A stretch of 64,000 bases of DNA from a virus (IMGVR_UViG_2524023210_000007:16429-80428); one strand, 5' to 3'; positions 18,025 to 54,083 are shown, counted from the first letter of the stretch. Notes: a model not told the origin generated them from the sequence alone. Numbers and translations: made by a program.

Positions 18025-18056
18025 CCACCCCGCAAAACTGGTTGCCGCTGCCGACA

Positions 18057-25796: not shown

Positions 25797-26473
25797 GCAC
25801 CTGGTATTTCGACCCGCTCCCGATGTTCGGATTTGACGTAGTGGACGTTGACCCTCCGACGCACTTCCAACTTTATTCCGAGAAGGGCAACAGAAAGTCG
25901 GCATCGGCACAGTACGACATCATGTCGTGGGATGATCTGGCAAAGATGCCGGTTGGCCATCTCGTGCGCGGCAACGGCATCATCACGCTTTGGGCTTGCC
26001 CACCGACGCTCGAGCAATCGCTTTGGCTGTTGAGACAGTGGGGCGCCCGCTTCAAGACTGAGCTCGTGTGGCCAAAGGGGCGCATGACGACGGGCTATCG
26101 GTCGCGCGGCATGCACGAGTCCGTTTTGCTCGGCGTGTTCGGCGACGAGCACCAGATCCACGACGCGCTTTACGGCGTGATCAAGGGTAAAGCGCGCGGT
26201 CATTCCCAAAAGCCGCGCGAGTGGTACGCGCACCTCCGCAAGAAGACGCCGGGCCTCAGCCGGTTGTGCCTTTTTTCGCGTGAAAGCCATGAGGGATACA
26301 CGCACTGGGGCAACGAGGTCGGCCTACTCGACAACGATGTGAAGCTCGCTCGTCAGCAGAAAGAGAAAGTAATCGCGCCGACGCCTCTCTTCGATCGATT
26401 GGGAGAGGCGGCCCCGACCAGCGGATGCATCGAGCCTATCGAATTCGCGCGAGCGAATGAACTGCTGTTGTAA
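25793..26473 (+). CDS. MT-A70-family adenine methyltransferase
   Basis: VVDVDPPT (DPPW-like), ELVWPKGRMTTGYRSRGMHESVLLGVFG, SQKPREWY. Confidence 0.65.
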   Translation: MSTWYFDPLPMFGFDVVDVDPPTHFQLYSEKGNRKSASAQYDIMSWDDLAKMPVGHLVRGNGIITLWACPPTLEQSLWLLRQWGARFKTELVWPKGRMTTGYRSRGMHESVLLGVFGDEHQIHDALYGVIKGKARGHSQKPREWYAHLRKKTPGLSRLCLFSRESHEGYTHWGNEVGLLDNDVKLARQQKEKVIAPTPLFDRLGEAAPTSGCIEPIEFARANELLL

Positions 26474-28730: not shown

Positions 28731-28961
28731 ATGGCAGATTGGCGGAAGATCGAGACGGCGATCGAGGATTACTTTCGTCGCCAAGGCACGCCAGCCGCAC
28801 GAGCGGGCGGTGACCTCTTCGTTGGCGCGATCACCCCAGAGGTCACTCATCGAAGTGCCGACGATGGCCACGCGACGACCGTCCTCACTATCGACGAGGA
28901 AGAAGAGATCGCGTTCGTTTCGTTGAGCGATCTCGCGCGCGAATTGGAGGCGCTGAAGTGA
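28731..28961 (+). CDS. hypothetical protein (76 aa)
   Basis: track ORF; stop overlaps GTG start of C5-MTase. Confidence 0.4.
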   Translation: MADWRKIETAIEDYFRRQGTPAARAGGDLFVGAITPEVTHRSADDGHATTVLTIDEEEEIAFVSLSDLARELEALK

Positions 28962-35883: not shown

Positions 35884-36524
35884 TCACGCGAAAGGAGGCG
35901 GCGCAGGCGAACCTCAAACGCTTCTTTACCGGGAAACCTTGTCGCAATGGGCACGTTGCCGAGCGATTTGTCTCATGCAGCAAATGCGTCGCCTGCGGCA
36001 CTGATCAGAATCGCCGCAACGTGCAGTATCGAAAGGACCGATACGCGCGGCTGCGCGATACGCTGATCGTCAACAGCCGAGCTTATTACGCGGCCAACGC
36101 TGAGCGCCTTCGGGCGTATCGCCGGGACTATTTCACAAGGAACAAGGAAGCCTGCTATCGCTCAGCGATCGATTGGCGCGCCCGTAACCGGCGTCGTCTC
36201 CGTCAATACTACCGCGAATACAAGCGGAACCATCCGCTCCACACCAGGACGGTTTGGCACAACCGACGCGCCAGAAAGGTCGGCAATGGTGGCACGCACA
36301 CCAATGCCGACATCCTGCTGATAGTACGAGAGCAGAAAAACAAGTGCGCCTACTGCCGGCGTGCGCTGACAGGACTGCGCTGGCATCGCGATCATATCAT
36401 CCCGCTCGCGTTGGGCGGGACAAACGATCGGATAAATATTCAGGTGCTTTGCCCGCCGTGCAATTGGCGGAAGGGGGCAAAAGACCCGATCGAATTTGCT
36501 CAATCCATGGGGCTCTTGCTTTGA
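35874..36524 (+). CDS. HNH endonuclease with N-terminal zinc finger
   Basis: CAYCRR...HRDHIIPLALGGTNDRINIQVLCPPCNWRKG. Confidence 0.7.
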   Translation: MQLITRKEAAQANLKRFFTGKPCRNGHVAERFVSCSKCVACGTDQNRRNVQYRKDRYARLRDTLIVNSRAYYAANAERLRAYRRDYFTRNKEACYRSAIDWRARNRRRLRQYYREYKRNHPLHTRTVWHNRRARKVGNGGTHTNADILLIVREQKNKCAYCRRALTGLRWHRDHIIPLALGGTNDRINIQVLCPPCNWRKGAKDPIEFAQSMGLLL

Positions 36525-37837
36525 CAGTTCGGATTATCAATGGGGACAGCAGGTCGGTGGTGCGCGGTCTTGAGCCAGGCTCGATCCATGCCTGCGTTTG
36601 CTCGCCGCCGTATTTTCGGCTTCGCGACTACCAAATGCCCGGACAGATCGGGCTCGAGTCATCGCCCGAGGCCTACGTCTCCGAGCTCGTCTCGCTCTTC
36701 CGCGACGTCCGCCGCGCGCTGCGCGACGACGGCTCGCTCTGGATAAACATCGGCGATTGCTATGCTGGCTCCGGACGCGGCGGCAATCCCGCAGCCGGCT
36801 CGTCGACGCTGCTCGGCACGCTCCAATCACAAGAGGCCTCCATGATCGTGCGCGAGCGCTGGGAGATCGGTGCCAGCTCGAGGAAGGCGGCCAACACGGA
36901 GCGGGGCAGCCGCTTGCCGGCCGGCCTTCAGGAGAGGGCGCGCCAGAATAGTGCGATCGGTCGGGCCTGGGAGCCGCCGCCCGCTGGGCTCAAGCAGAAG
37001 GATCTCATCGGCATTCCATGGATGTTGGCATTTGCGCTGCGCGCCGACGGCTGGTGGCTGCGCAAGGACAATATCTGGGCCAAGCCGAACGGGATGCCGG
37101 AGTCTACCCGCGATCGGTCGACCAGCGCCCACGAATACGTTTTTCACCTAACGAAGTCGGAACAATACTACTACGGCTATGAGGACGTGAGGCTGCCGCC
37201 CGCGCCGGAGTCAGTCTCCCGGCTAGCGCGCGCGATGCGCGGCCGCCTTGAAGAAGGCGGTCTCGTGGTCAGCGGCGGCGGGTACGCGCCGGCTGGACAG
37301 CCACCGCACACCGGCGCCCGGCGGCGCGATCGCCAGCGGGGACACAGCCGACGTCATGCGGGATTCAATGACCGCTGGGATGGAATGTCGGTGGCGGAAC
37401 AGCGGGCGAAGGGCGCCGCGCTGCGCTCGGTCTGGTGGGTGGCGCCGGGCGGCTTCAATGACGAATTCTGCACGAAGTGCCGAGCGTTCTACCCGAGCGC
37501 GGAGGTAGGCGACCTAAGAACCGAGAAGGTTGAGCGCGACGGCCGGAAACTGACGCTGCGGTACTGCCGATGCGGGGCGTGCGATAGCTGGCTGAACCAT
37601 TTCGCCGTGATGCCGCCGGAGGTCGCGGCGACGTGCATCCTGGCTGGCGTCCCGGAAGGAGGCTCGGTCTTGGATCCGTTCGCCGGCGCCGGCACCACCG
37701 GCCTGGTGGCCGACCAGCTTCAGCGTAACGCTGTTCTTATCGAACTGAACGGAGACTACGCAGAGATGGCAGCGCGCCGATTCGGCGCGCTGCATCCGAT
37801 GCTGACGAAGGTTGAGCTCGAGCGAGCACCAGCATGA
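36521..37837 (+). CDS. beta-class N6-adenine (or N4-cytosine) DNA methyltransferase, CcrM/HinfI-like, with Zn-finger insertion
   Basis: motif IV CSPPYF near N-terminus and motif I VLDPFAGAGTTG near C-terminus; TTG start overlapping HNH stop. Confidence 0.7.
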   Translation: MTVRIINGDSRSVVRGLEPGSIHACVCSPPYFRLRDYQMPGQIGLESSPEAYVSELVSLFRDVRRALRDDGSLWINIGDCYAGSGRGGNPAAGSSTLLGTLQSQEASMIVRERWEIGASSRKAANTERGSRLPAGLQERARQNSAIGRAWEPPPAGLKQKDLIGIPWMLAFALRADGWWLRKDNIWAKPNGMPESTRDRSTSAHEYVFHLTKSEQYYYGYEDVRLPPAPESVSRLARAMRGRLEEGGLVVSGGGYAPAGQPPHTGARRRDRQRGHSRRHAGFNDRWDGMSVAEQRAKGAALRSVWWVAPGGFNDEFCTKCRAFYPSAEVGDLRTEKVERDGRKLTLRYCRCGACDSWLNHFAVMPPEVAATCILAGVPEGGSVLDPFAGAGTTGLVADQLQRNAVLIELNGDYAEMAARRFGALHPMLTKVELERAPA

Positions 37838-42676: not shown

Positions 42677-43023
42677 AGCGGGCCCGTATTCCCACCCTCG
42701 GCTCCAGGATCGCTACCCTCGACACCCGGAAGGCCAAGCCGCTGCCGAAGAAGGCAGATCCTCACTATCAGAGCGCCGAGCACGAGAATTGGGCACGGCA
42801 GGTCAAGCAGCGCGCCGGTTGGCGGTGCGAACATGTCGACGAGCGCACTGGCCGGCGGTGTGAGCGTAGCAAGGCGAATGGTGACCAGATCTACGCCGAC
42901 CACATCGAAACCATCCGTGATCGCCCAGATCTCGCGCTTGATCTGAACAATGGGCGCGCAGCATGCAATTCGCACAACACCCGAGCAGGCATTCAGGCTC
43001 GAGCCCGGCGCATGAAATCGTAG
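42673..43023 (+). CDS. HNH endonuclease (terminase-associated type)
   Basis: GTG start overlapping stop (GTGA); CEHVDERTGRRC...ADHIETI...NGRAACNSHN. Confidence 0.65.
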   Translation: MKRARIPTLGSRIATLDTRKAKPLPKKADPHYQSAEHENWARQVKQRAGWRCEHVDERTGRRCERSKANGDQIYADHIETIRDRPDLALDLNNGRAACNSHNTRAGIQARARRMKS

Positions 43024-43032
43024 GAGGGGAGA

Positions 43033-43224
43033 ATGTCGAGTTGGCCGCCAGCGCCACCGGACCGAGACGCCTTTGGCGTGGCCGAACTCGGGCGGGTGCG
43101 ATTCAAACAAGGACTGCTCGGGATACGGGCCGAGCGGCTGTGCGAGCGCGCGGATGGATCGCGATTTTGGCGGCGGCTCCGGATCGGGGAAATCATCGAA
43201 ACCGCATTGGAGGATACATCATGA
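43033..43224 (+). CDS. hypothetical protein (63 aa)
   Basis: strong GGAGGGGAG RBS. Confidence 0.45.
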   Translation: MSSWPPAPPDRDAFGVAELGRVRFKQGLLGIRAERLCERADGSRFWRRLRIGEIIETALEDTS

Positions 43225-43433
43225 AGGAACCATCACCTCGCGCCGACCAGCTTAGGGCCTTGCGAGAAGCCAGATACGCGCGCAATCAGGCCCTGAAAAG
43301 CGAGCTCGACGCGCGGGATGCTGCGGCCGCGGCGAAGGAAGCGCCGCCGGCGCCGACAGCAAAGCGACCGCCGGCGAAGAAACGGCGCGCCAAGAAAGGA
43401 AGGCGCAGCCGGGGGAAGGACAATCGGTCGTAG
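43221..43433 (+). CDS. small basic protein (70 aa)
   Basis: GGAGGA RBS; ATGA overlap with previous gene. Confidence 0.4.
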   Translation: MKEPSPRADQLRALREARYARNQALKSELDARDAAAAAKEAPPAPTAKRPPAKKRRAKKGRRSRGKDNRS

Positions 43434-43435
43434 CG

Positions 43436-43771
43436 TCAGTCCTCGACGTCGGCATCAGCCGGCATCTGCCTCAGCTTCTGGTAGGGGAATTCGCCGAGTT
43501 CGGGATGGAGTCGGTCCGCCTGGATCATTGCCGCGGCGGCCATGCGCGCGGTCCCGAGCGCATTCGGGACCGTCAGGAGCGTCAGTGCGATCGGCACCCA
43601 GGTCGGAATATCCTGGACCTGGCCATCCTTCTCGCGGCCCCATCGGTTCACAGTTACCAGGTTCTGGCAGAACACGCGCGCGAAGGACTTCCGGGTCAGG
43701 CCCTGCCGTGCCAACTCGGTATCGAAATCTGCGCCCGAGATCTTGCGGTGAATAAATCGAGGTGGGGCCAT
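43436..43771 (-). CDS. HTH (XRE-like) regulator
   Basis: LTRKSFARVFCQNLVTVNRWGREKDGQ; GGAAAGGA RBS; first gene of leftward island. Confidence 0.5.
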   Translation of the reverse strand: MAPPRFIHRKISGADFDTELARQGLTRKSFARVFCQNLVTVNRWGREKDGQVQDIPTWVPIALTLLTVPNALGTARMAAAAMIQADRLHPELGEFPYQKLRQMPADADVED

Positions 43772-43804
43772 CTGAGGATCCTTTCCAATTGGGCACGGTT
43801 GCCC

Positions 43805-43857
43805 GGAATCGGCCGTAGCCGAGGGGTTAGCACAAAATCGATCGTAGCCGGGAGTCC
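43805..43857 (-). repeat. boundary repeat family 1, two direct copies (sense CYCCCGGCTACGRYCGATTTY)
   Basis: immediately 3' of the stop at 43865 and 5' of the RBS of gene 43436..43771. Confidence 0.6.
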
Positions 43858-43864
43858 CCGTCGG

Positions 43865-44239
43865 CTAGCTGAAGTCCAGCGGGGATACCAGGTGCCTGCC
43901 GACCGTCATCACCGGCGGGATGACGCCGCCGCGCTCGATCGCCGCCAGCCATTCCTTTTCGGTTCCGGTAAAGCCAGGTCCCGCCTCGACGTGATGGTCG
44001 GCCAGCCATTTGGCGAGCTCGCAAGTCGAAGCGCAGGGCGGCGATACCGGTGTCCCGGCGCTGGTGGTCTCGTACATCTGCCAGTGCGTCCGCTCCATCG
44101 CCGGCCACGCCGGCATATAGCTGGCGGCAGGATAAGGCGCGGGCGCATCCGGGAGGGCCTCGGCCAGCGGGATATAGCGGCCGGCGGAGTTGCGCGGGTG
44201 CTTCCAGTCGGCGGGCACGCGCCTAACGGTTCTGCTCAT
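43865..44239 (-). CDS. hypothetical protein
   Basis: internal ATG (MSRTVRRVPADWKHPR). Confidence 0.4.
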   Translation of the reverse strand: MSRTVRRVPADWKHPRNSAGRYIPLAEALPDAPAPYPAASYMPAWPAMERTHWQMYETTSAGTPVSPPCASTCELAKWLADHHVEAGPGFTGTEKEWLAAIERGGVIPPVMTVGRHLVSPLDFS

Positions 44240-44805
44240 GACGCCATTCCCTGACGCGCGAAGGGCCAAAGCCATTGGTCGATCCACGCGATAGTGGTTC
44301 GGTTGGCTTTGGTGGTGCGGCGCTGGTGGAGGCTGACCAGCCAGTGATATCCGTCCGCGAGGTCATCGGCGTGCTGCCCTTCGCCAAGTCCGATTAGGAC
44401 GTCACCCCACGACGCAACCATTCGGCGGCCGTCGCGGTCAGGCATGCCGTAGAGATAGAGCGAGCCGCCACCGCCGATCATCGGAGCGACGATCCAGGTA
44501 TAGAACTTGCCAGAACGGATTGCCGTCTTGAGATCGACAGCGAAGTCCTCTCCCATCGCTGATAAGAGCCGATGGAAAGGCACCTTCATCTCTTCGTCAT
44601 TCGGATCGACGCCGGCGCCATGCCACTCAGCCCAGCCATGGCTTTGGAAAATGTGCCGGCACTTTGATTCGTAATGCTGCCGCTGGCGGCAAACGAGGCA
44701 GTAGACCGTGTTGCTGTCGCAGTCGTCGCAAAGCATATTGTCGCGAAACACTTCGCCCACAGTCTCGCACCACTTACAGGTCCCAAGTTTGTAGTCGGTT
44801 GGCAT
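44236..44805 (-). CDS. Cys-rich hypothetical protein
   Basis: GAAGGAGG RBS; CKWC...CDDC...CLVC N-terminus. Confidence 0.5.
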   Translation of the reverse strand: MPTDYKLGTCKWCETVGEVFRDNMLCDDCDSNTVYCLVCRQRQHYESKCRHIFQSHGWAEWHGAGVDPNDEEMKVPFHRLLSAMGEDFAVDLKTAIRSGKFYTWIVAPMIGGGGSLYLYGMPDRDGRRMVASWGDVLIGLGEGQHADDLADGYHWLVSLHQRRTTKANRTTIAWIDQWLWPFARQGMAS

Positions 44806-44817
44806 CTATATCCTCCT

Positions 44818-45264
44818 TCACCTGGTCGGATGGAAGTTCAATTCGACCGATTGCTCGTGAGCGTCGTAAAGCGCCCTGATGTTGAGCCAATCGGTGGAGC
44901 GACCGTCGTTAGGACGCAGCCCAACCATGAGTCCGCCTTCCGGCGCCGGTTCAGAGAACAGCGCGCCAGAACCGAGAACAATGATCTGGCCGATCTCCGG
45001 TGTGCGCGGCGAAACACCGCGGAAGAGATCGCCAATATGCGTGCTCTCGCGAGTCTCTTTGACGACCGCGACCAGATCGCCTCTGTGGCCATCGAAGATG
45101 CGAGCCGTCTCGCGATCGATCAGCGAAGGCGACGGGATCGTGGTGAGCGAGGTCTGGCCGTCCTGGATCAAATAGACCGTGCCGTAACGATCGCTGCGGC
45201 GCTCCGACCCGCACCAGGTCAGGGTACCGACACCCAACAGGCGATTGATGACTTGATGTTGCAT
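44818..45264 (-). CDS. hypothetical protein
   Basis: AAAGGAGG RBS. Confidence 0.5.
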   Translation of the reverse strand: MQHQVINRLLGVGTLTWCGSERRSDRYGTVYLIQDGQTSLTTIPSPSLIDRETARIFDGHRGDLVAVVKETRESTHIGDLFRGVSPRTPEIGQIIVLGSGALFSEPAPEGGLMVGLRPNDGRSTDWLNIRALYDAHEQSVELNFHPTR

Positions 45265-45284
45265 GCATTCCTCCTTTCGGTTTG

Positions 45285-45304
45285 AAAATCGATCGTATCC
45301 GGGG
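45285..45304 (-). repeat. boundary repeat family 1, single copy
   Basis: plus-strand AAAATCGATCGTATCCGGGG; starts right after the stop of gene 45306..45617 and ~17 nt before next ATG. Confidence 0.6.
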
Positions 45305-45305
45305 A

Positions 45306-45617
45306 TCAGGATTGACCGGCTGTCTCAAGAACTCGTTTCAGGTCGAAGAATTCGACCATGGCAGGCACGCCCGTGCCGTCCCATTCCCAGATGACCCCAG
45401 TGAAGATCATCCGGTTTGCATCGCTGTGCTTGGTCGAGATATACGCCTGGGCCTCCTCCAGTGTCGGATAGCCATCGGAGTGGTGACCGATCGACTTGTA
45501 GCGCTAAGCGGTCATCTCGGCATCGGCGTTGCCAGGCATCGGGTAGGCACGGAACGGAATCGGGTGAAAGCGCCCAGTGGCGGTGTTCTTCAAAATGCCG
45601 GTGGGAAAGACGTTCAT
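45306..45617 (-). pseudogene. gene interrupted by in-frame amber codon (TAG at 45504..45506); possible RNase-H1-N/caulimovirus-VI-like fold
   Basis: GAAAGGAGA RBS + ATG at 45617; 37 codons, TAG, then 66 further in-frame codons to TGA abutting the family-1 repeat. Confidence 0.4.
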
Positions 45618-45636
45618 TGCGGGTCTCCTTTCTTCT

Positions 45637-45659
45637 GAAAATTGATCGTATCCGGGAGG
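45637..45659 (-). repeat. boundary repeat family 1, single copy
   Basis: plus-strand GAAAATTGATCGTATCCGGGAGG between stop of 45661..45939 and RBS of 45306..45617. Confidence 0.6.
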
Positions 45660-45660
45660 A

Positions 45661-45939
45661 TCAGAACAGTGAGCCTTGCGCCACATCTTCTAGCGGCGCC
45701 GCCGGCGTCCGACCGAGATGCTCGACCGTTTCGCCTATGATCTGGTCGCGGTCGTCGTCGATGAGAAGCCAACCGCGATCGCCGCCGGCAGGATCGTAAA
45801 CGACGAAGTCGCCGCCCCAGCGCTTGAAGATTCGTTCAGCAACGAGGCGCATGCCGGCGGGCACGTCGGTTGTGGCCTCGAACTCGGCGCGCGTAACGAT
45901 CTTGAAGCCCGCATTGATCAGGGTCTGTTCTCCGTTCAT
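45661..45939 (-). CDS. hypothetical protein (92 aa)
   Basis: internal ATG; coupled to upstream stop. Confidence 0.4.
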   Translation of the reverse strand: MNGEQTLINAGFKIVTRAEFEATTDVPAGMRLVAERIFKRWGGDFVVYDPAGGDRGWLLIDDDRDQIIGETVEHLGRTPAAPLEDVAQGSLF

Positions 45940-45940
45940 G

Positions 45941-46498
45941 TCAATAAACCTCGGCACCGATGCAAGCCGCGACGGCCGCGCGATACTCGCCGCCCGCGCG
46001 GTCCATGCGCTGCCAGACCTCCTTGCCGCCGAGCTTGTCGGCCAGCCATGCGAAGTCGGTCACGTAGAGGATGGCGTGCAGCAAGACCCGCTCGCCCGAA
46101 CTGCAGACGCCGTCGCATTGCTTGGCGAGTTTCACGAAACGCCCTTTGTCAGGATCGTTGAACTGCACGATAGAACTTCGGAGATGCCGCCAACTCTGCG
46201 CCGACTCGAGGTATTCGAGAAGACCCATCTTCCGAAAGATGCTGCGCGCCGGCTCACTAGCCTTGAAGCGCTCGAATCTGTGAACGTTCGCGCGTGCGTG
46301 GCCGAGTTCTTCGGCGACGTCGGGCATCCTTGCCCAGGTCCGTCCCGCATTCGTGATCTCGATCATACCGGGGTCGACACGTCGAGCCATCCCGGTATTG
46401 ACGAGAACACGCTCGGGGATGCGGTCGTGATCGGTGCGCGGTCCTTTCATGAGTTCATTGAGCAGCATCTGTTCCTCAGACGTCAGTTGGGTCGACAT
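45941..46498 (-). CDS. hypothetical protein (185 aa)
   Basis: GAGGAGA RBS. Confidence 0.5.
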   Translation of the reverse strand: MSTQLTSEEQMLLNELMKGPRTDHDRIPERVLVNTGMARRVDPGMIEITNAGRTWARMPDVAEELGHARANVHRFERFKASEPARSIFRKMGLLEYLESAQSWRHLRSSIVQFNDPDKGRFVKLAKQCDGVCSSGERVLLHAILYVTDFAWLADKLGGKEVWQRMDRAGGEYRAAVAACIGAEVY

Positions 46499-46515
46499 GG
46501 GTAAATCTCCTCTTC

Positions 46516-46566
46516 AAAATCGGCCGTAGCCGAGGGGAACGGGAAATCGGTCGTAAGCGGGAGGGC
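46516..46566 (-). repeat. boundary repeat family 1, two direct copies
   Basis: between stop of 46577..48877 and RBS of 45941..46498. Confidence 0.6.
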
Positions 46567-46576
46567 GCAGCCGGGG

Positions 46577-48877
46577 CTATCCCGGCGGCCCGTCGATCAC
46601 CACCAGCGCGGTATTCACCATCGTGCCGGCAGACTTGAACGAGCCGGCGGGCAGCGGCCTATATTCGAGAGCGATCGGCTCAAGGCGCGCGCGCTGCCGC
46701 GGGCCGTCGGCGCAGATCGCGACGAGCCGGCCGCCAGGCCGCAAGAACGTGCGGGCGTGCTCAATATGCCGGATATCGTCGCCATCCTTGAATGGCGGGT
46801 TCATCAAGACGCGATCGAACTTGCCGAGCTCGTCCGTGCTGCACTTGAGGAAGTTAGCGCAGTGAATGCGCAGGCCGCTAACTGGCGCACTGGCCAGGGC
46901 CTGCACCAATTGCGGGTTGATCTCGACCGCCACCTTATCGGGCGCTGGACCAATCGCCCGGAGGAGGGCGCCGGTTCCAGCGCTCGGCTCCAGGACACGA
47001 TGATCGGGCTCGATCTCGGCGAACTCGACGACGTCAGCGGCCAGCCTCGGCGGCGTTTCGAACAATTGCGGTGCGACGACAACTTGCACGCCGCCGCCGC
47101 GCAGCACCGCCCGCATGGCCTCAAAATCAGCCGTAGGCGAGGGAGGCGGCAAATCGGCCGTATCCGGGAGAGGGTCGAGCGCGGGCGCATCCGGCAGGCT
47201 GCAATCCAACGCGCTGCGCAACTCGTCGATCTTAACCCATCTCCACCCTTTGCTGCCATTAAGGCAGGCGGTTTTCAGCTCAACAAAACCATCCTCGGTT
47301 CGAAGCACTTCGCAAGACTCGCCTTGAAAAGTGAAGCGGTCGCCTTTGGTGAAAGCGAGCGCGGCCGCATCCAGGGTCATCGCCCGCGGGACAGGGTGCG
47401 GCTCGGCCATGATCTCGCCGACCGTCGCCAGCATGTCGTCAAGATCGACCGCGGGCGGCGCGACATACACCGCCACGAATTCGGCCGGCTCCTTCGGCTC
47501 CGCGGGCCGCGCGATCTTGGGCGGGTCGACGCGCTTTGCATCCGTGATGAAAACTTGCTGTTTCTTCCAGAACTCGCCAGGCACCGGCATTTGGCGGACA
47601 CGGTGCGCGCCGTGGGTCTCGGTCTCCTTCACCTTGCCGATATACGGGAAATCAGAGAACTGCCGGCGCGCCTTCCATTCGGCTTCCGTCATCTCGCGGA
47701 ATCCCTCGCCAGGATAGTTGCAGATCGGCGGGAGCTTGGCGGCGGCCTTCGCCGCGGCGACGTTCTCCGCGCTCGGTGCCCGATAATCGCGGATGCTTTC
47801 CACGCTCCAGCGCGCTTGCTTGGAGCGCGATCCGGCCGGCGCGGTCGTCGTCATGCTGGAAACCGAACCGTTGGCGCCCCTGTTGACCTTCAGCACCGTA
47901 AGCCATTCGTCGCCGCGGCGGGTCTGCACCTGACCGCCGACCGCGAAGGCGAAGCGGTCCGCAAGCGGGTTGGCAGTCGCCTCCGTGCCGATCTGCTCGG
48001 CCAACATCGCCCGTTCATAGGCCAGCCGGTTGTCATAGTGCGCCATCCAACGGTCCCGCCGAGGCCCTGAGCGTTCCAGGCTCGGAATCGCAATGGCGGC
48101 AGCCTGCGCGGCGGTGATGACGTTCCCGTCAATCGCCGACCAAAGGCCCATCGGTCCCTCATACTGCGAGGCCGGCGGGTCGCGCGGATAGTCGGCCAGC
48201 GGAAACGACATCGACCAATAACCGCCGATGTTGGCCACGGCCAAACCGGCGGCGCGCTGCCTCCCGGGGTCCGTGATGCCGGCGACGATCTGCCAGCCCT
48301 TCAGCTGCCTTTCGGTCTCCGCCTGCTGCTTCTCCAGCTTCCGCTTGTCGGACTCAATGCCCTTGATGCGGCGATGACGCACCGCCGGCAACTCCTTATA
48401 CTTCGCATGAGCGAGGGCGCCGGCGGCTCGCGCCGTCCAATAATTCGAGGTGTCCCAGAGTTTCAGCGCCTTCCGCATGCCGTTGTCCATGCGTTCTTTG
48501 TCTTTTCGCGCGCTCTTCTCCGAGTGATGGCCGACGAGGATGGGCTGCCCAAACGCGAAGCGTTCGGCGATTTGGTCGACCGCGTCGCGGGCGCGGTTGG
48601 CTTCGGCCAAGCGCTTGTCGCTGTACTCCTCGAAGCGGTCGGCGCGCTGCTCGGCGCGATCTACAAGGCTTGTGTCCTCGTCGCCGATCTCACCGCAGAG
48701 CTCAATCAGCAAATCTTCCCGGCTTGGCGTCCAGGTCGGCGCGACGAAAAGCCCCTGTTTCGGCGCCCACTTGAAGCCGGCGGCTTTCACGCGCGCGTAT
48801 GTCTCGGGATCGAGGCGCGAGACGGAATAGAGGCGAAGGCGGTTGTCGTCAGGGCAATAAGTAGCAGTCATGGTCAT
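46577..48877 (-). CDS. large fusion protein: ~600-aa conserved N-terminal region (ICE/plasmid-type, DUF3560-like?) + C-terminal gamma-class N6-adenine MTase
   Basis: C-terminus: motif I VLEPSAGTGALL, motif IV NPPF; AAAGGAG RBS 8 nt before ATG (MTMTATY); family-1 repeat pair encoded in-frame as linker. Confidence 0.6.
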   Translation of the reverse strand: MTMTATYCPDDNRLRLYSVSRLDPETYARVKAAGFKWAPKQGLFVAPTWTPSREDLLIELCGEIGDEDTSLVDRAEQRADRFEEYSDKRLAEANRARDAVDQIAERFAFGQPILVGHHSEKSARKDKERMDNGMRKALKLWDTSNYWTARAAGALAHAKYKELPAVRHRRIKGIESDKRKLEKQQAETERQLKGWQIVAGITDPGRQRAAGLAVANIGGYWSMSFPLADYPRDPPASQYEGPMGLWSAIDGNVITAAQAAAIAIPSLERSGPRRDRWMAHYDNRLAYERAMLAEQIGTEATANPLADRFAFAVGGQVQTRRGDEWLTVLKVNRGANGSVSSMTTTAPAGSRSKQARWSVESIRDYRAPSAENVAAAKAAAKLPPICNYPGEGFREMTEAEWKARRQFSDFPYIGKVKETETHGAHRVRQMPVPGEFWKKQQVFITDAKRVDPPKIARPAEPKEPAEFVAVYVAPPAVDLDDMLATVGEIMAEPHPVPRAMTLDAAALAFTKGDRFTFQGESCEVLRTEDGFVELKTACLNGSKGWRWVKIDELRSALDCSLPDAPALDPLPDTADLPPPSPTADFEAMRAVLRGGGVQVVVAPQLFETPPRLAADVVEFAEIEPDHRVLEPSAGTGALLRAIGPAPDKVAVEINPQLVQALASAPVSGLRIHCANFLKCSTDELGKFDRVLMNPPFKDGDDIRHIEHARTFLRPGGRLVAICADGPRQRARLEPIALEYRPLPAGSFKSAGTMVNTALVVIDGPPG
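47123..47174 (-). repeat. boundary repeat family 1 pair embedded in-frame inside the fusion ORF
   Basis: encodes ...LDPLPDTADLPPPSPTADFEAMRAV... just upstream of the MTase domain; coordinates approximate. Confidence 0.5.
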
Positions 48878-48896
48878 AGTGGTTGCTCCTTTCATC

Positions 48897-48912
48897 TTGC
48901 GCACAATCGCGC
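48897..48912 (-). repeat. palindromic repeat family 2 (TTGCGCACAATCGCGC) upstream of RBS
   Basis: 12-28 nt upstream of the 46577..48877 start, directly 5' of its SD. Confidence 0.55.
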
Positions 48913-48919
48913 TTTTCGG

Positions 48920-48977
48920 GAATCAGCCGTGACCGGGAGTCGCGGCTATCAACGGGAAATCAGCCGTAGCGGAGGCC
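48920..48977 (-). repeat. boundary repeat family 1, two direct copies
   Basis: begin immediately after the TAG of micro-ORF 48978..49085. Confidence 0.6.
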
Positions 48978-49085
48978 CTAGCGCAGGGCCTCGCACTGTT
49001 CGATATGGCGGACGATCAAATAGAACGGCCGCAACTGGTGACAGTGGGGACAACGCAATTTGCGTGGTTGCGGTTTGCGCGTCAT
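48978..49085 (-). CDS. micro-ORF, 35-aa zinc-ribbon-like peptide
   Basis: MTRKPQPRKLRCPHCHQLRPFYLIVRHIEQCEALR; stop abuts a family-1 repeat as at other gene boundaries; no clear SD. Confidence 0.3.
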   Translation of the reverse strand: MTRKPQPRKLRCPHCHQLRPFYLIVRHIEQCEALR

Positions 49086-49103
49086 GGCAGCGGCACCGGA
49101 CCG

Positions 49104-49442
49104 TCAAGACGTGAGGCGCGTGCGAAGTCCCTCGCGAATTGAACGCGGCCATTCCGGAGGCCCCGCAGATACATGAATCGGTGGTGCGCGATCATGTTGA
49201 CGAGGCCGAACGGGGTGAGGGCCGTTGTAGCAATTCATCCCGCCCCATGTCGCTTCAAGGTAGATACGGCGCCGGAAGGTTCCGCATTCGATATAGATCG
49301 TTCGGCCGACGCGCGAGGGGTGGCGCCGGGCCAGGCGCATTGCTGTTGAGGCCGCGCGCCATTCCGATTGTGAGCGCGGCGCCGGCCTCGACTTCAAAGC
49401 GTCGCACATTTCCGAGAACGTCGATTCAGGTTTACGTTTCAT
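49104..49442 (-). CDS. hypothetical protein (112 aa)
   Basis: internal ATG 12 nt after stop of upstream gene; R-rich, so uncertain. Confidence 0.3.
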   Translation of the reverse strand: MKRKPESTFSEMCDALKSRPAPRSQSEWRAASTAMRLARRHPSRVGRTIYIECGTFRRRIYLEATWGGMNCYNGPHPVRPRQHDRAPPIHVSAGPPEWPRSIREGLRTRLTS

Positions 49443-49453
49443 CGGCGCCACCG

Positions 49454-50017
49454 TCAGGCCGCAAGCCGAATTGCGCAGGAAGGCGCAACCGGGACACGCG
49501 CCATAACGGGCACAAGGCAAGACGTGCGCAGGATCCTGCCCGGGATCTTGAGAGAAGGCGCAACCGGGACCGGTACCGCTTCCGGAATTATCTCCTCAAC
49601 CGGTTCGGCGGGCTGCCAATCCCAATTGGGAATCTCGATCCGCGACACGACGTCCCAATGGTGCGTTGTGCAGGCGGTGCGGCCGTAGCCGCTGGACGTG
49701 GTCCGACGCTTGCCGAATTCGACCGCACGGACACGCTTTTGCAACTTGCCATTTGGGCCGGTCACGCTGGACCAATCCACCACATACTCAAGCCCCGCCG
49801 GAATCTCGATTGCATCGCGGCGCGCCAGCCAATGCGCGTACGCGACCGCATGCCGCGCGTTCAAGTCATCGGCGGAAACGCCGCCGGTGCTGCGCGTGAC
49901 TTTCGAGCTATGCCGGACCTTGTGCCGCTTGTCGTTAGCGGAAGGCACCCAACGCTTTTCCGGAAGCGGGCCGTGAATCGTCGGATGGTCGAAAAAATCA
50001 TAGAACAGCCATGCCAT
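49454..50017 (-). CDS. hypothetical protein (187 aa) with internal VPVAPS direct repeat
   Basis: AAAGAGGAG RBS preceded by family-2 palindrome. Confidence 0.45.
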   Translation of the reverse strand: MAWLFYDFFDHPTIHGPLPEKRWVPSANDKRHKVRHSSKVTRSTGGVSADDLNARHAVAYAHWLARRDAIEIPAGLEYVVDWSSVTGPNGKLQKRVRAVEFGKRRTTSSGYGRTACTTHHWDVVSRIEIPNWDWQPAEPVEEIIPEAVPVPVAPSLKIPGRILRTSCLVPVMARVPVAPSCAIRLAA

Positions 50018-50038
50018 GCTAGATTGCTCCTCTTTCAG

Positions 50039-50055
50039 TTGCGCACAATCGCGCG
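50039..50055 (-). repeat. palindromic repeat family 2
   Basis: TTGCGCACAATCGCGCG immediately 5' of the SD of gene 49454..50017. Confidence 0.55.
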
Positions 50056-50079
50056 GTTTGAATCGTCGAAACGGTGCGG

Positions 50080-50283
50080 CTAGGCTGCCAACTCAACCGG
50101 CCGATAAGCCGTGCACCAATGCGGCCCGACGATGTAACCGCAGTGCACGGCGCTACCGTCCGGCTTGTCGCGGTACATTTTCGCGACCCGTCCGCCGCCG
50201 ATCTTGCTACGCAGCTCCGCAATGGTGCTGGCGCCCCAGCGGTTGCCGAATTGGTCTACGTAGAGAGTCCAAATTCCGCGCAT
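50080..50283 (-). CDS. small hypothetical protein (67 aa)
   Basis: AAAGGA RBS after family-2 palindrome; MRGIWTLYVDQFGNRWG... Confidence 0.45.
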   Translation of the reverse strand: MRGIWTLYVDQFGNRWGASTIAELRSKIGGGRVAKMYRDKPDGSAVHCGYIVGPHWCTAYRPVELAA

Positions 50284-50300
50284 GTCAGTATCCTTTCGAG

Positions 50301-50317
50301 TTGCGCACAATCGCGCG
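50301..50317 (-). repeat. palindromic repeat family 2
   Basis: TTGCGCACAATCGCGCG 5' of the SD of gene 50080..50283. Confidence 0.55.
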
Positions 50318-50374
50318 TTGGCCCGCTTTGGCGTTCCGTGCTGCGCTGGGCCAGGCCAGCGCAGTATCGCAACG

Positions 50375-50827
50375 TCAAGACATGGGAAGGCGGGAAATGT
50401 CGCGGAGTTGCGAGGCCGCGCATTCCGCTGCATCGCGAGTTGTGCAGTCTGTGATTGCTTGCGCCTCGCCGGAATGATGGCGAGCGTAAATCGTCCAGAA
50501 TTCGGCTTCACTGTTGGACTTCCCGCCGATGGTGAACGTGTCGCCATTTTCTTCCGTCTCGGTGACGCATCCGCCGATTTCCAGCGACTTGAATTGCGAC
50601 CAATCGGGCGCAATCTGGCCAGAGCAGCAATTGTAAAGAAACGAATTCGGCCGCGCCAAATAGATGCCGGCGGCGCCCTGCCATGTTGTCTCGCCGTTAT
50701 CCCATTTGACTTGAAGCGGTCCGTTCGCATTGTCGCGGACATCGACAACGATTCCCAAATCGCGGTCATCGGTGCCATTCGTGACGCGTGCGCCTATCGG
50801 CGGAAGGTGGGAGTTCTGCAGGTCCAT
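50375..50827 (-). CDS. hypothetical protein (150 aa), N/D/T-rich
   Basis: track ORF; GGGGA SD-like; natural composition. Confidence 0.5.
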   Translation of the reverse strand: MDLQNSHLPPIGARVTNGTDDRDLGIVVDVRDNANGPLQVKWDNGETTWQGAAGIYLARPNSFLYNCCSGQIAPDWSQFKSLEIGGCVTETEENGDTFTIGGKSNSEAEFWTIYARHHSGEAQAITDCTTRDAAECAASQLRDISRLPMS

Positions 50828-50932
50828 TTAGCGTCCCCTATGGGATGAATAGAATCCGGATCATGAGCAGCGCAAGGCCAGCGTCACTAACGATGTAGAG
50901 AAGGCGTGCCAGCCTTGCGAGGTGATAGGCCT

Positions 50933-51037
50933 TCACAGGCACGAATTCAGAAACGCGCGCTTACCGTGGCTCAATGCGGCGCGGCGAGTCCGCTTATCAA
51001 TCGGCTTGCGGTCGGAATCGTGGCGACGATACTTCAT
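50933..51037 (-). CDS. micro-ORF, 34-aa basic peptide
   Basis: AAAGGGAAA RBS after family-2 palindrome; MKYRRHDSDRKPIDKRTRRAALSHGKRAFLNSCL. Confidence 0.35.
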   Translation of the reverse strand: MKYRRHDSDRKPIDKRTRRAALSHGKRAFLNSCL

Positions 51038-51056
51038 AGCGGTTTCCCTTTCATGG

Positions 51057-51071
51057 TTGCGCAATTGCGCG
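51057..51071 (-). repeat. palindromic repeat family 2 (perfect GCGCAATTGCGC core)
   Basis: 5' of the SD of micro-ORF 50933..51037. Confidence 0.55.
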
Positions 51072-51125
51072 GTTCGGCGGTTGCCGATCATGCCCGGGAC
51101 AAGCCCGGGCATGGGCTGCAATCGC

Positions 51126-52004
51126 TTAGGCCGCGAGCGGAGCGGCGCCCTTGAGCTCCGCCATTTTCGCCGCGAGAGTGAAAAGAGCGCGGTTCAGTTT
51201 CACGTCTTGATCGATACCATTGACGGCGCGCGTGGTGACGCGGCGAGGGCGATTGTTAGCGTCACGGCCGCGCGCTGTGAGTCCGCCGCGAATGACGTTT
51301 TCCTGAACGACGTTAAACGTGGTCCAAAGGTCCGACGCGGTGTCATCACGGCGCCGCGGGCGGAGCAGTTGCGCGGGCTGAATCGGCGTATTGGTTTCGC
51401 CTTCCGCGTCGCCAAACCGCAGAACGTGCGCGGACTCCGCCAGCACTTGCTTTTCGTCGCTGTTGAGGGCCAGGCGCGCCCAGTCCTGCGGCGCCGCAAG
51501 CGCCTTCTGTGCTTCGCCCAAAACCCGATACGTGCCCTCGATCACCTTGTGCGAAACGTCCTGCGCGGTGCCGGTATGGCGGACCTTCACGGAATCGATG
51601 GTGCCGACTTGTGCCACAAGGCTGTTGAGGCAACGGACGCGGAAAAGTCCCGCGATCAGGTCATAGGCTGACGTTCCGTCATTCGCGTTCTTGAGGAGGA
51701 TTTCGCAGACGGTGTCACCGACGCTATACGCCGCGGCGTTGTCGAGACGGCGGAGACGGATAAGATGCTTCGTGAAGTCGCGGCGATCATCGATCCGCGC
51801 GACGCTCTGCTTTGCGCCGACAGGCTGGAAGCCCTCCGCCATCAGCGCGCGCAGCACGTCGAAAGTCGGGATTGGCTGAAAACGGTCAGAACGCGAGTGG
51901 TGCGCGTCAACCGCGAAAACGGACGGCGCCAGCTTGCGCAATTCGGTTTCGGTCAGGGCGCGGGCGGAGTCATCGAAGCGGGCGGTTGAGGTGTAGACGG
52001 TCAT
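51126..52004 (-). CDS. conserved phage/plasmid-associated protein (DUF932-like?)
   Basis: track ORF (292 aa); AAAAGGAAG RBS after family-2 palindrome; family assignment from memory only. Confidence 0.5.
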   Translation of the reverse strand: MTVYTSTARFDDSARALTETELRKLAPSVFAVDAHHSRSDRFQPIPTFDVLRALMAEGFQPVGAKQSVARIDDRRDFTKHLIRLRRLDNAAAYSVGDTVCEILLKNANDGTSAYDLIAGLFRVRCLNSLVAQVGTIDSVKVRHTGTAQDVSHKVIEGTYRVLGEAQKALAAPQDWARLALNSDEKQVLAESAHVLRFGDAEGETNTPIQPAQLLRPRRRDDTASDLWTTFNVVQENVIRGGLTARGRDANNRPRRVTTRAVNGIDQDVKLNRALFTLAAKMAELKGAAPLAA

Positions 52005-52023
52005 TGCAGATACTTCCTTTTCA

Positions 52024-52041
52024 GGTGCGCACTATTGCGCG
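52024..52041 (-). repeat. palindromic repeat family 2
   Basis: GGTGCGCACTATTGCGCG 5' of the SD of gene 51126..52004. Confidence 0.55.
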
Positions 52042-52095
52042 GTTTCGGCGATTTGCCGGTTATGCCGTGGCGTGCACGGCATAGGCTGCAAATCG

Positions 52096-52167
52096 TCAGA
52101 TACAGCACGCCACGATGACGAATGTGCCGACGCTGGCGAAGAGGAGAAAAAGCAAAAAGTCTTTCAT
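52096..52167 (-). CDS. micro-ORF, 23-aa hydrophobic peptide
   Basis: MKDFLLFLLFASVGTFVIVACCI; AAAGGTAAG SD after family-2 palindrome; coordinates approximate. Confidence 0.3.
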   Translation of the reverse strand: MKDFLLFLLFASVGTFVIVACCI

Positions 52168-52182
52168 GATCTTACCTTTCGA

Positions 52183-52200
52183 ATTGCGCACTATTGCGCG
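52183..52200 (-). repeat. palindromic repeat family 2
   Basis: ATTGCGCACTATTGCGCG 5' of micro-ORF 52096..52167. Confidence 0.5.
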
Positions 52201-52209
52201 GGTCGAAGC

Positions 52210-52377
52210 TTAGCGGCGGGAACGGCGCGCGCGGTGGCGGATCGCCCGGCGGCGCCGCGGTAGCGGTTCACTGTACTCGAAAACAAAAAGGACGATTAGG
52301 CCCAACGCGGCCAGGATGAGCAGGACGAAAACCGGAAACATCGGGTTGGCGATGCAGAAGGAAATGAGAGCGTTCAT
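52210..52377 (-). CDS. small membrane protein (55 aa) with poly-Arg tail
   Basis: MNALISFCIANPMFPVFVLLILAALGLIVLFVF...RRRRAIRHRARRSRR; family-2 palindrome upstream. Confidence 0.4.
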   Translation of the reverse strand: MNALISFCIANPMFPVFVLLILAALGLIVLFVFEYSEPLPRRRRAIRHRARRSRR

Positions 52378-52395
52378 TTCGCCGGGCCTTTGGAG

Positions 52396-52411
52396 TTGCG
52401 CACAATCGCGC
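52396..52411 (-). repeat. palindromic repeat family 2
   Basis: TTGCGCACAATCGCGC 5' of gene 52210..52377. Confidence 0.55.
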
Positions 52412-52451
52412 TTGAGAGAGTGGCGCGGCCGATTGACCGCGCCGGTAGTCC

Positions 52452-52631
52452 TTACTTGATTCCGAAAATCCAGAACGGGTTGGTTTCCGTCTGGGCGGGT
52501 TGCAGAGCGGCCGGCTTGCTCTTCTGTTCCTCCTCGATGTTGCGGCAGAGCATTTCGAGATAGCCGATGGTGCCAAGGCCTTGAGTGAAGTCGGGGCAGG
52601 GCGGAAGGTCTTTGGTCTTGATGACGGCCAT
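52452..52631 (-). CDS. small hypothetical protein (59 aa)
   Basis: AAAAAGGGAAAA RBS after family-2 palindrome; MAVIKTKDLPPCPDFTQGLGTIGYLEMLCRNIEEEQ... Confidence 0.45.
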   Translation of the reverse strand: MAVIKTKDLPPCPDFTQGLGTIGYLEMLCRNIEEEQKSKPAALQPAQTETNPFWIFGIK

Positions 52632-52651
52632 AGTCGTTTTCCCTTTTTCGG

Positions 52652-52668
52652 TTGCGCACAATTGCGCG
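52652..52668 (-). repeat. palindromic repeat family 2
   Basis: TTGCGCACAATTGCGCG 5' of gene 52452..52631. Confidence 0.55.
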
Positions 52669-52765
52669 TTCAGTGAAAGCACCATACAGGACCGGCCGGC
52701 CGTGTCAACAGGCAAAACGCAAAAAAGTGACGTTCGGCCGAAAAAAGTTAGTTCGGCGTCACAGA

Positions 52766-53086
52766 TCAGGGATGCAGCGCGCGGTACTGCGCCAGCAATT
52801 TGCCTGCCCGCTCAATGAATTGCCAGCTGTCGCCGGCCGAGATGCCGAGCTCCACCGCCCTGCAGCGCAGCGCGACGTCAGGGCCGGCGCCCATGGCGCG
52901 GTAGATCGCTATCGAGTTCGGCGAGGCGAAAATGGCGCGCGCCGCGGCGTTATTGGACAGGCCTAGCCGGTCCTGCCAGGCCACGAAGTCGGCCGCGCTG
53001 ATTCGCAGTGACGCGTCACCAGATGCAAAATCGCGCTTTTGCGGCGCTCGGACGTCGGCCGACTTTGTCGCGCTTTTCCTCGCCAT
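52766..53086 (-). CDS. putative HTH DNA-binding protein (first gene of leftward island)
   Basis: LGLSNNAAARAIFASPNSIAIYRAM HTH-like; track ORF. Confidence 0.4.
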   Translation of the reverse strand: MARKSATKSADVRAPQKRDFASGDASLRISAADFVAWQDRLGLSNNAAARAIFASPNSIAIYRAMGAGPDVALRCRAVELGISAGDSWQFIERAGKLLAQYRALHP

Positions 53087-54083
53087 GCCATCTCACTCCG
53101 TAGTGACGTTTCCGGGTTAACCCACACTAGGCGGACCTATCACAGATTTGAGTCGCAGCAACCCGGCGGAGCGCGCCTATCAACGGGCAAGCGCCGCCGC
53201 GTCGGTTTGACAGCCGACTCATTTTCCGATTCAGAGCGGGAACAGTGAAGGATTGTCACCACGGGCAACCCGCCAGGCCGAAAGGTCTCGGCGGGTTTCG
53301 CATGTCAACGGTGCACCATGGCCAACCCGACCAATGCAGCTGCGCCGATTGCTGGAACGTGGCGCCCAACCGGCAACGCGCGGTTGCGGTGCGGTTGGTT
53401 CGGCCGGCCGATAATCGAGATTGAGGAGTCCGCCACGGTGCTGACTGGCGATCCTGCGCCAGGCCAAGCCATCGGGACATGGCGAGTAGCGAAGCGTTGG
53501 CGCCGCGCTCGGCGCGGCCAAGTCGTGGCGCTCGGTACCGTTGCAGCCATGGTCGCCTTTGCCCGTGGCAAGGCGGAGCGGTAGCGCCCATGGGTGACGT
53601 CGTCGCGTTCGCTGTCCCTGCCGGCGGCGCCGCCGCGCGTGCAGTCCCTGCCAGCGATGAATCCGCAACCGTTGTTATCTTGCCCGTCATCCGCCTAGAG
53701 CGCTGCAGCCCCGACCCATGGGACGGGTTGCCGAGCGATAGCGCTCCGCCGCATGCGGCCACGTTCCCGGATGACGGCGCGTAGTCCGCCACGTCAACTG
53801 GTCACCACCTAACGCACACGCCAGCCAGGTAACGCCAGCACGTTGCGGCGGGGCGGCGCCGGGTGCCATGGGCGCCGCCGGACATGGTCGGGCAACCCGA
53901 CCCGCGACGCTCGCAACAGCCAAGCCGGGCCAGCCAACCGCCAACCCGCCCCCCGTCGGCGGACCTCGAGCAAGGGGGGCAGGGGGGGGCAAATTCCCGA
54001 AAGACGGCAGGACCCGGGACCGCTTGGGGTCGCATCCGCACAATTTTTTTGAGGCGGCCGAAATTTTTGGCCGAGATCGCAAA

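Follow-up and report, generated by a model that had tools for sequence, protein, structure and literature searches.

A stop-codon-proximal direct repeat at gene junctions of a Bradyrhizobium prophage operon and its association with cassette exchange

How phages exchange genes at gene boundaries without wrecking the neighbouring genes is an old question, for which Botstein's modular theory proposed linker sequences, and the only well-documented linkers so far are the PeSLs of lytic T4-type phages. The same question is raised by a stretch of viral DNA of 64,000 nucleotides (IMGVR_UViG_2524023210_000007:16429-80428; the whole stretch is referred to as the window, or W in comparisons with relatives), in which a motif of 21–23 nt recurs at the gene boundaries of a leftward operon that extends from ~52700 to 43250. 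What is this motif, where exactly does it sit, and what could it do there? Here we name it element A and report that it is a conserved phage junction element tied to modular shuffling, a new example of a 'linker', in this case from temperate phages of a soil/nodule bacterium, where an unrelated and unstructured 21-nt element shows the same evolutionary behaviour.

In the sense orientation, A is composed of a C-rich run followed by 4–5 variable bases and then TACG-RYY-GATT. Ten strong copies and one degenerate copy were counted in the window, which share the minus strand and fall within 43419–48977 (Table 1), along with two half-copies (CCCCGGCTGCGCC). The consensus given in a first-pass annotation of this DNA, with ≤3 mismatches allowed, gave 6 matches in the window versus 0.00 expected, and a looser pattern gave 11 matches versus 2.56 expected, a number that was reached in 0 of 100 shuffles. 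When a weight matrix made from the A copies themselves was run over the 64 kb, ten sites scoring 24–33 bits were obtained on the minus strand only (span 43804–48977), and the rest of the sequence held just two weak matches (16.4 bits at 2667 and 13.6 bits at 63662). The annotation had claimed at least ten copies, which is borne out by these ten strong copies, none being expected from shuffles. The five loci that it listed are real and contain eight copies, but it missed a pair at 47122–47171 inside the open reading frame (ORF) of a DUF3560-methyltransferase fusion. It had also put the spacing within pairs at 27–34 bp, and the start-to-start spacings were 27, 27 and 29 nt for three pairs but 37 nt for the fourth. 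Copies were said to start shortly after a stop codon, and the distances in the window are indeed 0–13 nt. The distance of 10–20 nt between the end of the repeat and the next Shine-Dalgarno sequence (SD) or ATG could not be upheld for the pairs starting at 43804 and 48918, which end 33–41 nt before the ATG because a hairpin, described below as B, intervenes.

Relatives were found by an exact-pattern scan of viral contigs. About nine genome-derived Bradyrhizobium prophages carry 6–18 A copies each, clustered and always on one strand, and two farther metagenomic lineages (L068/L121 and L109/L061, 55–56% G+C) also have A; in the related loci, 160/160 copies share the strand of the genes. The information in A, taken over 105 distinct contexts, resides in C4, C6–G8, T10–G13 and G17–T21, positions 3, 5, 14, 15 and 16 vary almost wholly by transitions, and the bases after the 3' end of the motif show no conservation. 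Transversions are present at positions 2, 8 and 9. The information content amounts to ~28 bits, and the motif is asymmetric, without dyad symmetry. When 99 distinct copies were tested for covariation, 66.5% of cells paired as against 67.9% after column shuffling, and double changes were not in excess. Junction RNAs containing A folded no better than shuffles (z from −1.1 to +1.3), and two single copies folded worse than shuffles (z = +1.1 and +1.3). A 5-bp stem is possible only in the A2 subtype of the Bradyrhizobium lineage and is lost in L068 and L109. Since the distant lineages retain only ACCCC, 4 variable bases and TACGRCTGATT, the small hairpin UCGGC-UACG-GCCGA is not the conserved feature. 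The conserved feature of A is its sequence, not a fold, as the first-pass annotation had stated from the window.

The position of A was analyzed in 75 distinct junction groups comprising 117 copies, for 55 of which groups the upstream ORF was callable. The first copy begins 0–21 nt past a stop codon in 41 of these 55 groups (~75%), and most of the outliers are probably overlooked small ORFs because the gene caller used in this analysis was crude. The earlier view that the motif marks gene junctions holds in the relatives. The distances from the end of the last A to the next start fall into three classes, 14–22 nt (only the SD lies in the gap), 30–42 nt (hairpin B lies in the gap) and 64–87 nt (an extra block with a perfect TTGACA precedes B). 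At junctions having the TTGACA block, A remains by the stop codon and B remains by the SD. The operon of L106 and that of L109 each end in an A pair placed after the last gene. Because A keeps to the stop and B to the SD, and because an A pair closes the operon in these two loci, A is a gene-end element and B is a gene-start element. The order at a junction is stop, 0–21 nt, one or two A, 1–7 nt, B, 3–6 nt, SD and start; alternatively, A stands directly before the SD without B. Junctions without A are tight, with stop and start overlapping or nearly abutting, and thus the blocks set apart by A consist of one to three genes coupled in translation. Across related loci, the spacing within pairs ranges from 21 to 37 bp. 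As a separate observation, the start-to-start spacings of neighbouring A copies in all related loci were odd in 42/42 cases (21, 23, 25, 27, 29, 37 and 65).

Hairpin B (sense GCGCRANNGUGCGC) has a 5-bp stem and a 4-nt ANNG loop, and precedes the SD by 3–6 nt at most genes of the promoter-proximal half; in relatives, it often comes straight after an A pair. For the covariation analysis, B sequences were picked by loop and SD proximity only, and 86.9% of cells pair versus 68.5% in shuffles, a value that 0 of 500 shuffles reached. Compensatory changes were observed in four of the five pairs (GCGC/GCGC, GGGC/GCCC, CGGC/GCCG and GCGA/UCGC). At the fifth pair, A-U and G-U are equally frequent (13 sequences each), and such G-U pairs point to RNA. 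B begins 14 nt past the −10 hexamer of the sole good sigma-70-like promoter, a geometry kept in the distant L105, and at internal junctions it begins 1–7 nt past the 3' end of A. Judged from these sequences, B is probably a 5'-proximal mRNA hairpin.

Other hairpins were found at junctions of the proximal half of the operon, where long bipartite hairpins occupy A's place just after stops (z about −4). These include ~47-nt bipartite stem-loops at 52049–52095 and 51077–51125 (minus strand), located between a stop and B and also seen in L004, L008 and L032; 0 of 200 shuffles folded as well, and the inner stems differ between copies in a compensated manner. A further junction hairpin at ~50341–50364 (minus strand; CTGCGCTGGCC/GGCCCAGCGCAG) lies between conserved flanks, TTGACGTTGCGA and CACGGAACGCC, also in L004, L008 and L032, and its stem sequence varies among relatives with pairing retained.

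Two places bear on selection at A, the more telling being the copy inside the methyltransferase fusion. At the junction before the helix-turn-helix (HTH) gene, ~100 nt are almost invariant in 8 relatives, the flanking genes being 70–86% identical. The copy inside the methyltransferase fusion is always in the same frame (LPDTADL), and the mean pairwise difference at its 7 third codon positions is 0.000 versus 0.41 in the next 50 codons (8 relatives). Only three changes occur in this copy, all non-synonymous and all at positions where the motif is variable. Given that ~24% of flanking codons are invariant at the third position, 7/7 invariant third positions would arise by chance with a probability of ~5e-5, which is a rough guide as the sequences are related. 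The pair inside this ORF is also present in the distant L109 lineage; its second copy is identical or nearly so there and has decayed in some close relatives. Selection, or gene conversion, thus acts on the nucleotides of A and not on the peptide.

The gene content between the repeats was compared among relatives. Between two conserved anchors (the methyltransferase fusion and the HTH gene), the assortment drawn from ~15 gene families plus unique ORFs changes from relative to relative, with A at most block borders, and blocks of homology to the window begin or end at A copies. For instance, W has the arrangement A-g14-A, and L025 has one A whose left flank is that of the left junction and whose right flank is that of the right junction. 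This difference is what A-by-A recombination would produce, and g14, wholly missing from L025, is a decaying cassette. In addition, two A variants that can be told apart, and the blocks lying between them, stand in a different order in L020 than in L030 or W. The proposal of the first-pass annotation that these repeats are module boundaries was thus supported by comparison, in that cassette insertions and deletions among relatives end in A. Exchange is not limited to A copies, however; a 1.7-kb insertion in W relative to L004 has both ends at A-less gene boundaries, and so A is not the sole place of exchange.

How widely is A distributed? A scan of one genome per species detected A pairs only in Bradyrhizobium embrapense, B. 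sp. C9 and B. sp. Leo170, plus about a dozen isolated matches in unrelated taxa, a number at the estimated chance level. GenBank phages showed neither DNA homology nor a similar motif, plasmids contained nothing like A or the repeat pair (the only DNA match was for the DUF3560 gene), and the motif strings were absent from the papers of the literature collection searched. A is, so far, previously undescribed and specific to the Bradyrhizobium prophage group and its two metagenomic sister lineages. It had been considered that the motif might be a common repetitive extragenic palindromic (REP) element of the host, and this did not hold, since A keeps to a single operon within a single prophage group. 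With respect to membership of the REP or bacterial interspersed mosaic element (BIME) families, A is not palindromic, and its clusters occur only in prophage-like loci of the three Bradyrhizobium genomes, single copies not having been scanned for in the whole host genome. In L105, A has been lost and only decayed remnants are left after two stop codons (2030–2075, TGATCTCCCAAAAGGGATACC; 2895–2925, GCCCCGGCTACGATCCCACG), and every B hairpin has been changed to a CGGC/GCCG stem.

As to what A does, we have a slight and tentative preference for a role at the RNA level over a roadblock on DNA, and propose that A may be recognised or processed, as a single strand, within the polycistronic mRNA, RNA processing being among the roles that the first-pass annotation had listed. 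Three features favour this role: A is always transcribed in one sense and is single-stranded, the other parts of the junction (B and the long hairpins) are RNA structures, and A ends 1–7 nt before a hairpin that otherwise stands at the 5' end of the primary transcript. In the polycistronic transcript, A would then be a single-stranded site marking the 3' boundary of each translational block. In the most specific version, A would be an endonucleolytic processing site, a cleavage that we purely infer. RNase E prefers the sequence R-N↓W-U-U, and the invariant 3' end of A, G-A-U-U-U, which is an A/U-rich stretch in an otherwise GC-rich junction, would fit this preference. A cut at that point would leave the 5' end of the downstream cistron a few nucleotides before hairpin B, so that it would resemble a transcript made from the promoter, where B is likewise near the 5' end. 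The upstream part of A (UACG and the C-run) could be the binding platform of some factor. As a by-product, identity of at least 20 nt at each junction would offer a safe and portable crossover for homologous recombination, which would explain the cassette shuffling.

Several points weigh against this proposal. A is dispensable, as L105 has lost it, and its restriction in the window to the distal half of the leftward operon also suggests dispensability. Gene conversion among copies, rather than purifying selection, could partly explain the conservation. RNase E needs no 20 conserved nucleotides, and no factor was found for the rest of A; the copy inside the ORF, if cut efficiently, would be harmful; and the putative internal promoters of the TTGACA blocks have a perfect −35 but a −10 that fails the criterion of the promoter tool. 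Moreover, a DNA-level model equally explains the orientation, the asymmetry, the copy number and the copy inside the ORF. Such a model, the main rival, would have a phage protein bound to double-stranded A, in the manner of a stoperator, block or pause RNA polymerase at gene ends and thereby silence the operon in the lysogen or late in infection, which we consider possible but doubtful. A is asymmetric with ~28 bits, is present in 10–18 copies per phage at short intergenic sites and always points with transcription, features of the kind published as hallmarks of the cluster A stoperators (PMC9283540). Restriction to one lineage is as expected with co-evolution with a phage protein, and a copy within the longest gene would be harmless for a DNA site and would even out the site density. 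On the other hand, L5-type repressors use the stoperator sequence as an operator too, whereas no A is found at or near the operon promoter (no copy reaching 10 bits near 52681–52708) or elsewhere in 46 kb of prophage, and no two-domain repressor was identified. The terminal HTH protein (family F1) was rejected as the binder of A, since its XRE fold, resembling Aca1 and HigA, belongs to a class that normally binds palindromes and since it persists in L105, where A has decayed. The methyltransferase fusion (F2) was rejected as well, because L130 contains a 47%-identical homologue but neither A nor B. The variable pair spacing (21–37 bp) speaks against cooperative binding on one helix face, and a roadblock leaves unexplained why A ends 1–7 nt before an RNA hairpin.

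It is also conceivable, but decidedly unlikely, that A is a recombination linker only, with no regulatory role, which persists via cassette exchange in co-infecting relatives and gene conversion. The end points of insertions, deletions and permutations in A, the A1-then-A2 order, which suits cassettes with their own ends, and the loss of A in L105 all agree with it, but the 11-mer and the C-run are invariant in three lineages that are 25–40% apart at the protein level, the copy inside the ORF is kept although no exchange is seen there, exchange occurs at A-less junctions too, and second-order selection for evolvability is weak. By its size, asymmetry, orientation and place upstream of the SD, and with B again at the 5' end of the transcript, A resembles a promoter read by a phage's own RNA polymerase or sigma factor, such as the 23-bp T7-type, from which transcripts would start at the 3' end of A. 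This we regard as very improbable, as no RNA polymerase or sigma gene is present among the prophage ORFs scanned (a 789-aa ORF considered as a phage RNA polymerase is a DNA methyltransferase), the A pairs that close the operon in L106 have no gene behind them, the bases after the motif are not conserved, and A stays by the stop when the spacer is long. Least probable of all is that an antisense RNA acting in trans targets A, in the way known for seqA/seqC of satellite phage P4. Positions 3, 5, 14–16 and 21–22 are limited to Y or R and would tolerate wobble, and a contiguous invariant block of 11 nt suits base pairing, but positions 2, 8 and 9 show transversions, no complement exists on the transcribed strand or in non-coding regions of the window, and the sole high-scoring complement (2669–2686) is antisense within a kinase-like ORF and favoured by a G/U scoring bias. 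Beyond the RNA-level role that we prefer, A, B and the long hairpins might together form a dedicated, sequence-addressed cassette system of temperate phages, an unlikely extension on our estimate. If it is true, A would be read by a specific RNA-processing enzyme or recombination protein and accessory or anti-defence blocks would become plug-and-play units, giving an integron-like shuffling platform that lacks an integrase and directly embodies Botstein's linker hypothesis at the molecular level.

A number of other identities for A were tried and rejected. An intrinsic terminator or mini-hairpin (CGGC-UACG-GCCG) showed no covariation, its stem is missing in distant lineages, and the terminator scan reported no G+C-rich hairpin with a U tract at A. 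Predicted folds in which the C-rich 5' end of A would sequester the SD that follows were weak and did not surpass those of shuffles. No sigma-70 promoter-like site on the gene strand overlaps any copy of A or its pairs, and the spacings of sigma-54 and extracytoplasmic function (ECF) promoters fitted poorly as judged by eye. For an antisense promoter with the AAAATC end as −10, one match was found (46492–46520, plus strand), with no consistent −35 at other junctions. Searches with the Rfam 15 covariance models gave no match at E ≤ 1 in 43000–53300 and only tRNA in the whole window. A shows no similarity to the tRNA-Met gene or to an attachment (att) site, and its resemblance to the 16S rRNA 3' region/helix 45 (7 + 5 nt) was judged to be within chance. 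No CRISPR arrays turned up in the scans, and a mimic of a CRISPR repeat, which has a low prior as the motif is only 21–23 nt, was not the object of an aimed test.

Table 1. Features of the leftward operon in the window, listed from the promoter to the distal end
Feature	Position	Strand	Remarks
Operon promoter, sigma-70-like	52681..52708	-	TTGACA-16-TATGGT, 10/12 matches
First B hairpin	52654-52667	-	begins 14 nt past the −10 hexamer
B copies in the window	52654-52667, 52398-52411, 52186-52199, 52027-52040, 51059-51070, 50303-50316, 50041-50054, 48899-48912, 43791-43804	-	
Zinc-ribbon-like ORF, 35 aa	48978-49086	-	upstream of the first A pair
A copy, pair member 1	48955..48977	-	1 nt after the stop of the zinc-ribbon-like ORF; sense GGCCTCCGCTACGGCTGATTTCC
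A copy, pair member 2	48918..48940	-	ACTCCCGGTCACGGCTGATTCCC; hairpin B 5 nt further on
B hairpin	48899..48912	-	GCGCGAUUGUGCGC; then SD GAAAGGAG, then ATG of the methyltransferase fusion at 48877
DUF3560-methyltransferase fusion gene, 766 aa	46577..48877	-	conserved anchor of the repeat-bearing region
A copy 1 inside the ORF	47149..47171	-	reads LPDTADL; border of DUF3560 and methyltransferase domains; third codon positions invariant in 8 relatives
A copy 2 inside the ORF	47122..47144	-	reads SPTADFE; then GAGGCC-ATG
Half-copy of A	46564..46576	-	CCCCGGCTGCGCC, 5' half with A11 -> G; abuts the stop of the methyltransferase gene
A copy, stop-proximal subtype A1	46542..46564	-	CCTCCCGCTTACGACCGATTTCC
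A copy, start-proximal subtype A2	46515..46537	-	CCCCTCGGCTACGGCCGATTTTG; SD GAGGAG and ATG at 46498 adjoin
Single A copy	45637..45659	-	between stop 45661-45663 and SD/ATG 45617; left g14 boundary
g14 cassette	45306..45617	-	pseudogene, in-frame TAG 45504-45506; an A copy on each side
Single A copy	45284..45306	-	1-nt overlap with g14 stop 45306-45308; then SD, ATG 45264; right g14 boundary
A1 copy	43833..43855	-	9 nt after stop 43865-43867; identical in 8 relatives
A2 copy, same junction as 43833..43855	43804..43826	-	weight matrix
B-variant hairpin	43791..43804	-	GGGCAACCGUGCCC; compensated stem; before SD and ATG 43771
XRE-type HTH gene, family F1, 111 aa	43436..43771	-	conserved distal anchor of the operon
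Degenerate A copy	43419..43441	-	over the HTH-gene stop, GAC-TGA-CGCTACGACCGATTGTC; good copy here in relatives

The window is mostly prophage, with a terminase large subunit, a portal protein and an S49 protease on the right side and a DnaB-like helicase, a primase-like protein, a DNA polymerase III beta subunit and several DNA methyltransferases on the left side. The repeat-bearing operon is flanked by two rightward modules. Recognisable domains are present in only three of its genes (DUF932 and the DUF3560-methyltransferase fusion), gene types that are common on conjugative plasmids, and all other ORFs of the operon gave no family match. A protein recorded from Bradyrhizobium sp. Ai1a-2 matches F1 at 100% identity, and none of the 28 F1 homologues falls below 55% identity. 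The predicted structure of F1 (predicted local distance difference test score, pLDDT, 88.6) is like that of XRE-type HTH proteins, Aca1 and HigA2 among them, with weak fold-search scores. In the related contig L106, a gene with the Pfam Acb3 domain (counteracting the cyclic-oligonucleotide-based anti-phage signalling system, CBASS) lies near the operon (9884–10750); this gene and the Aca1-like fold modelled for the terminal HTH protein suggest that the leftward operon may be an anti-defence island with an Aca-type regulator. The prophage also has four DNA-methyltransferase-like proteins, an unusually large number (25793–26470, MT-A70; 28958–31324, the 789-aa PHROG methyltransferase; 36254–37834, N6_N4_Mtase; 46577–48877, the DUF3560 fusion). 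Left of the tRNA-Met gene (17958–18034), positions 1–17900 of the window contain RNase_T-like, kinase-like, PP2C and DUF3799 (PD-(D/E)XK-like) genes, and this region may be mobile or defence-related DNA instead of plain host chromosome. The weak A-like sequence at 2667–2689 (minus strand, 16.4 bits) lies inside the kinase-like ORF (2023–3753) and reads LPTTTDF in the phase shared with LPDTADL of the copy inside the methyltransferase fusion; its complement would wobble-pair with every A. It is probably due to chance, as the scoring favours G/U-rich sequence.

The junction grammar described here (A, B and the long hairpins) is found in an operon rich in ORFans and anti-restriction-type genes. 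The system is tractable, with culturable hosts, a short motif, and RNA and DNA mechanisms that predict differently, and the factor reading A, if found, could become a tool to insulate or process synthetic operons in GC-rich alphaproteobacteria.

Among known systems, the precedent for punctuation of a transcript is T7 early mRNA, which RNase III cuts between cistrons at hairpins with an internal loop. It likewise has intercistronic signals in a polycistronic transcript that also carries an anti-restriction function. A differs from these sites in being unstructured, and the long hairpins of the proximal half, in particular the ~47-nt stem-loops, whose shape is like that of RNase III-type intercistronic sites, are closer to them. 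Integron attC sites are imperfect inverted repeats of 57–141 bp that IntI recombines as folded single strands. Like A, they punctuate cassettes that are mostly promoterless and arrayed in one direction, each boundary bearing a recognisable sequence, whereas A is a 21-nt direct repeat without dyad symmetry, and the island and prophage ORFs scanned gave no integrase match. The stoperators of cluster A mycobacteriophages (L5 gp71; PMC9283540, PMC6550527) are similar to A in occurring as many asymmetric intergenic copies oriented with transcription. They are 13 bp long, genome-wide, and share their sequence with the early-promoter operator (PMC9283540, PMC6550527), whereas A is ~21 bp long, is part of one operon, is often tandem, is absent from the promoter and has no known repressor. 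The SAS/ESAS of cluster K mycobacteriophages (PMC3203893) are, like A, conserved asymmetric intergenic repeats tied to translation signals of a gene subset. A, however, is tied to the stop, and the start-associated element here is hairpin B. SAS are reportedly located 3–8 bp upstream of start codons and include SD-like bases. The closest in behaviour to A are the PeSL cassettes of T4-type phages, which combine a sigma-70-like early promoter with a stem-loop terminator (PMC2839356, PMC4122927). PeSLs reportedly also give rise to circular cassette intermediates, or mini-circles, through motif-by-motif recombination. Common to both are short composite intergenic motifs around ORFans in a hyperplastic early or accessory region, with insertions and deletions ending in the motifs, and the notion of linkers that direct exchange to gene borders; unlike at a PeSL, there is neither a promoter nor a stem-loop at A, and the junctions of this temperate-phage operon are built from the separate elements A, B and the long hairpins.

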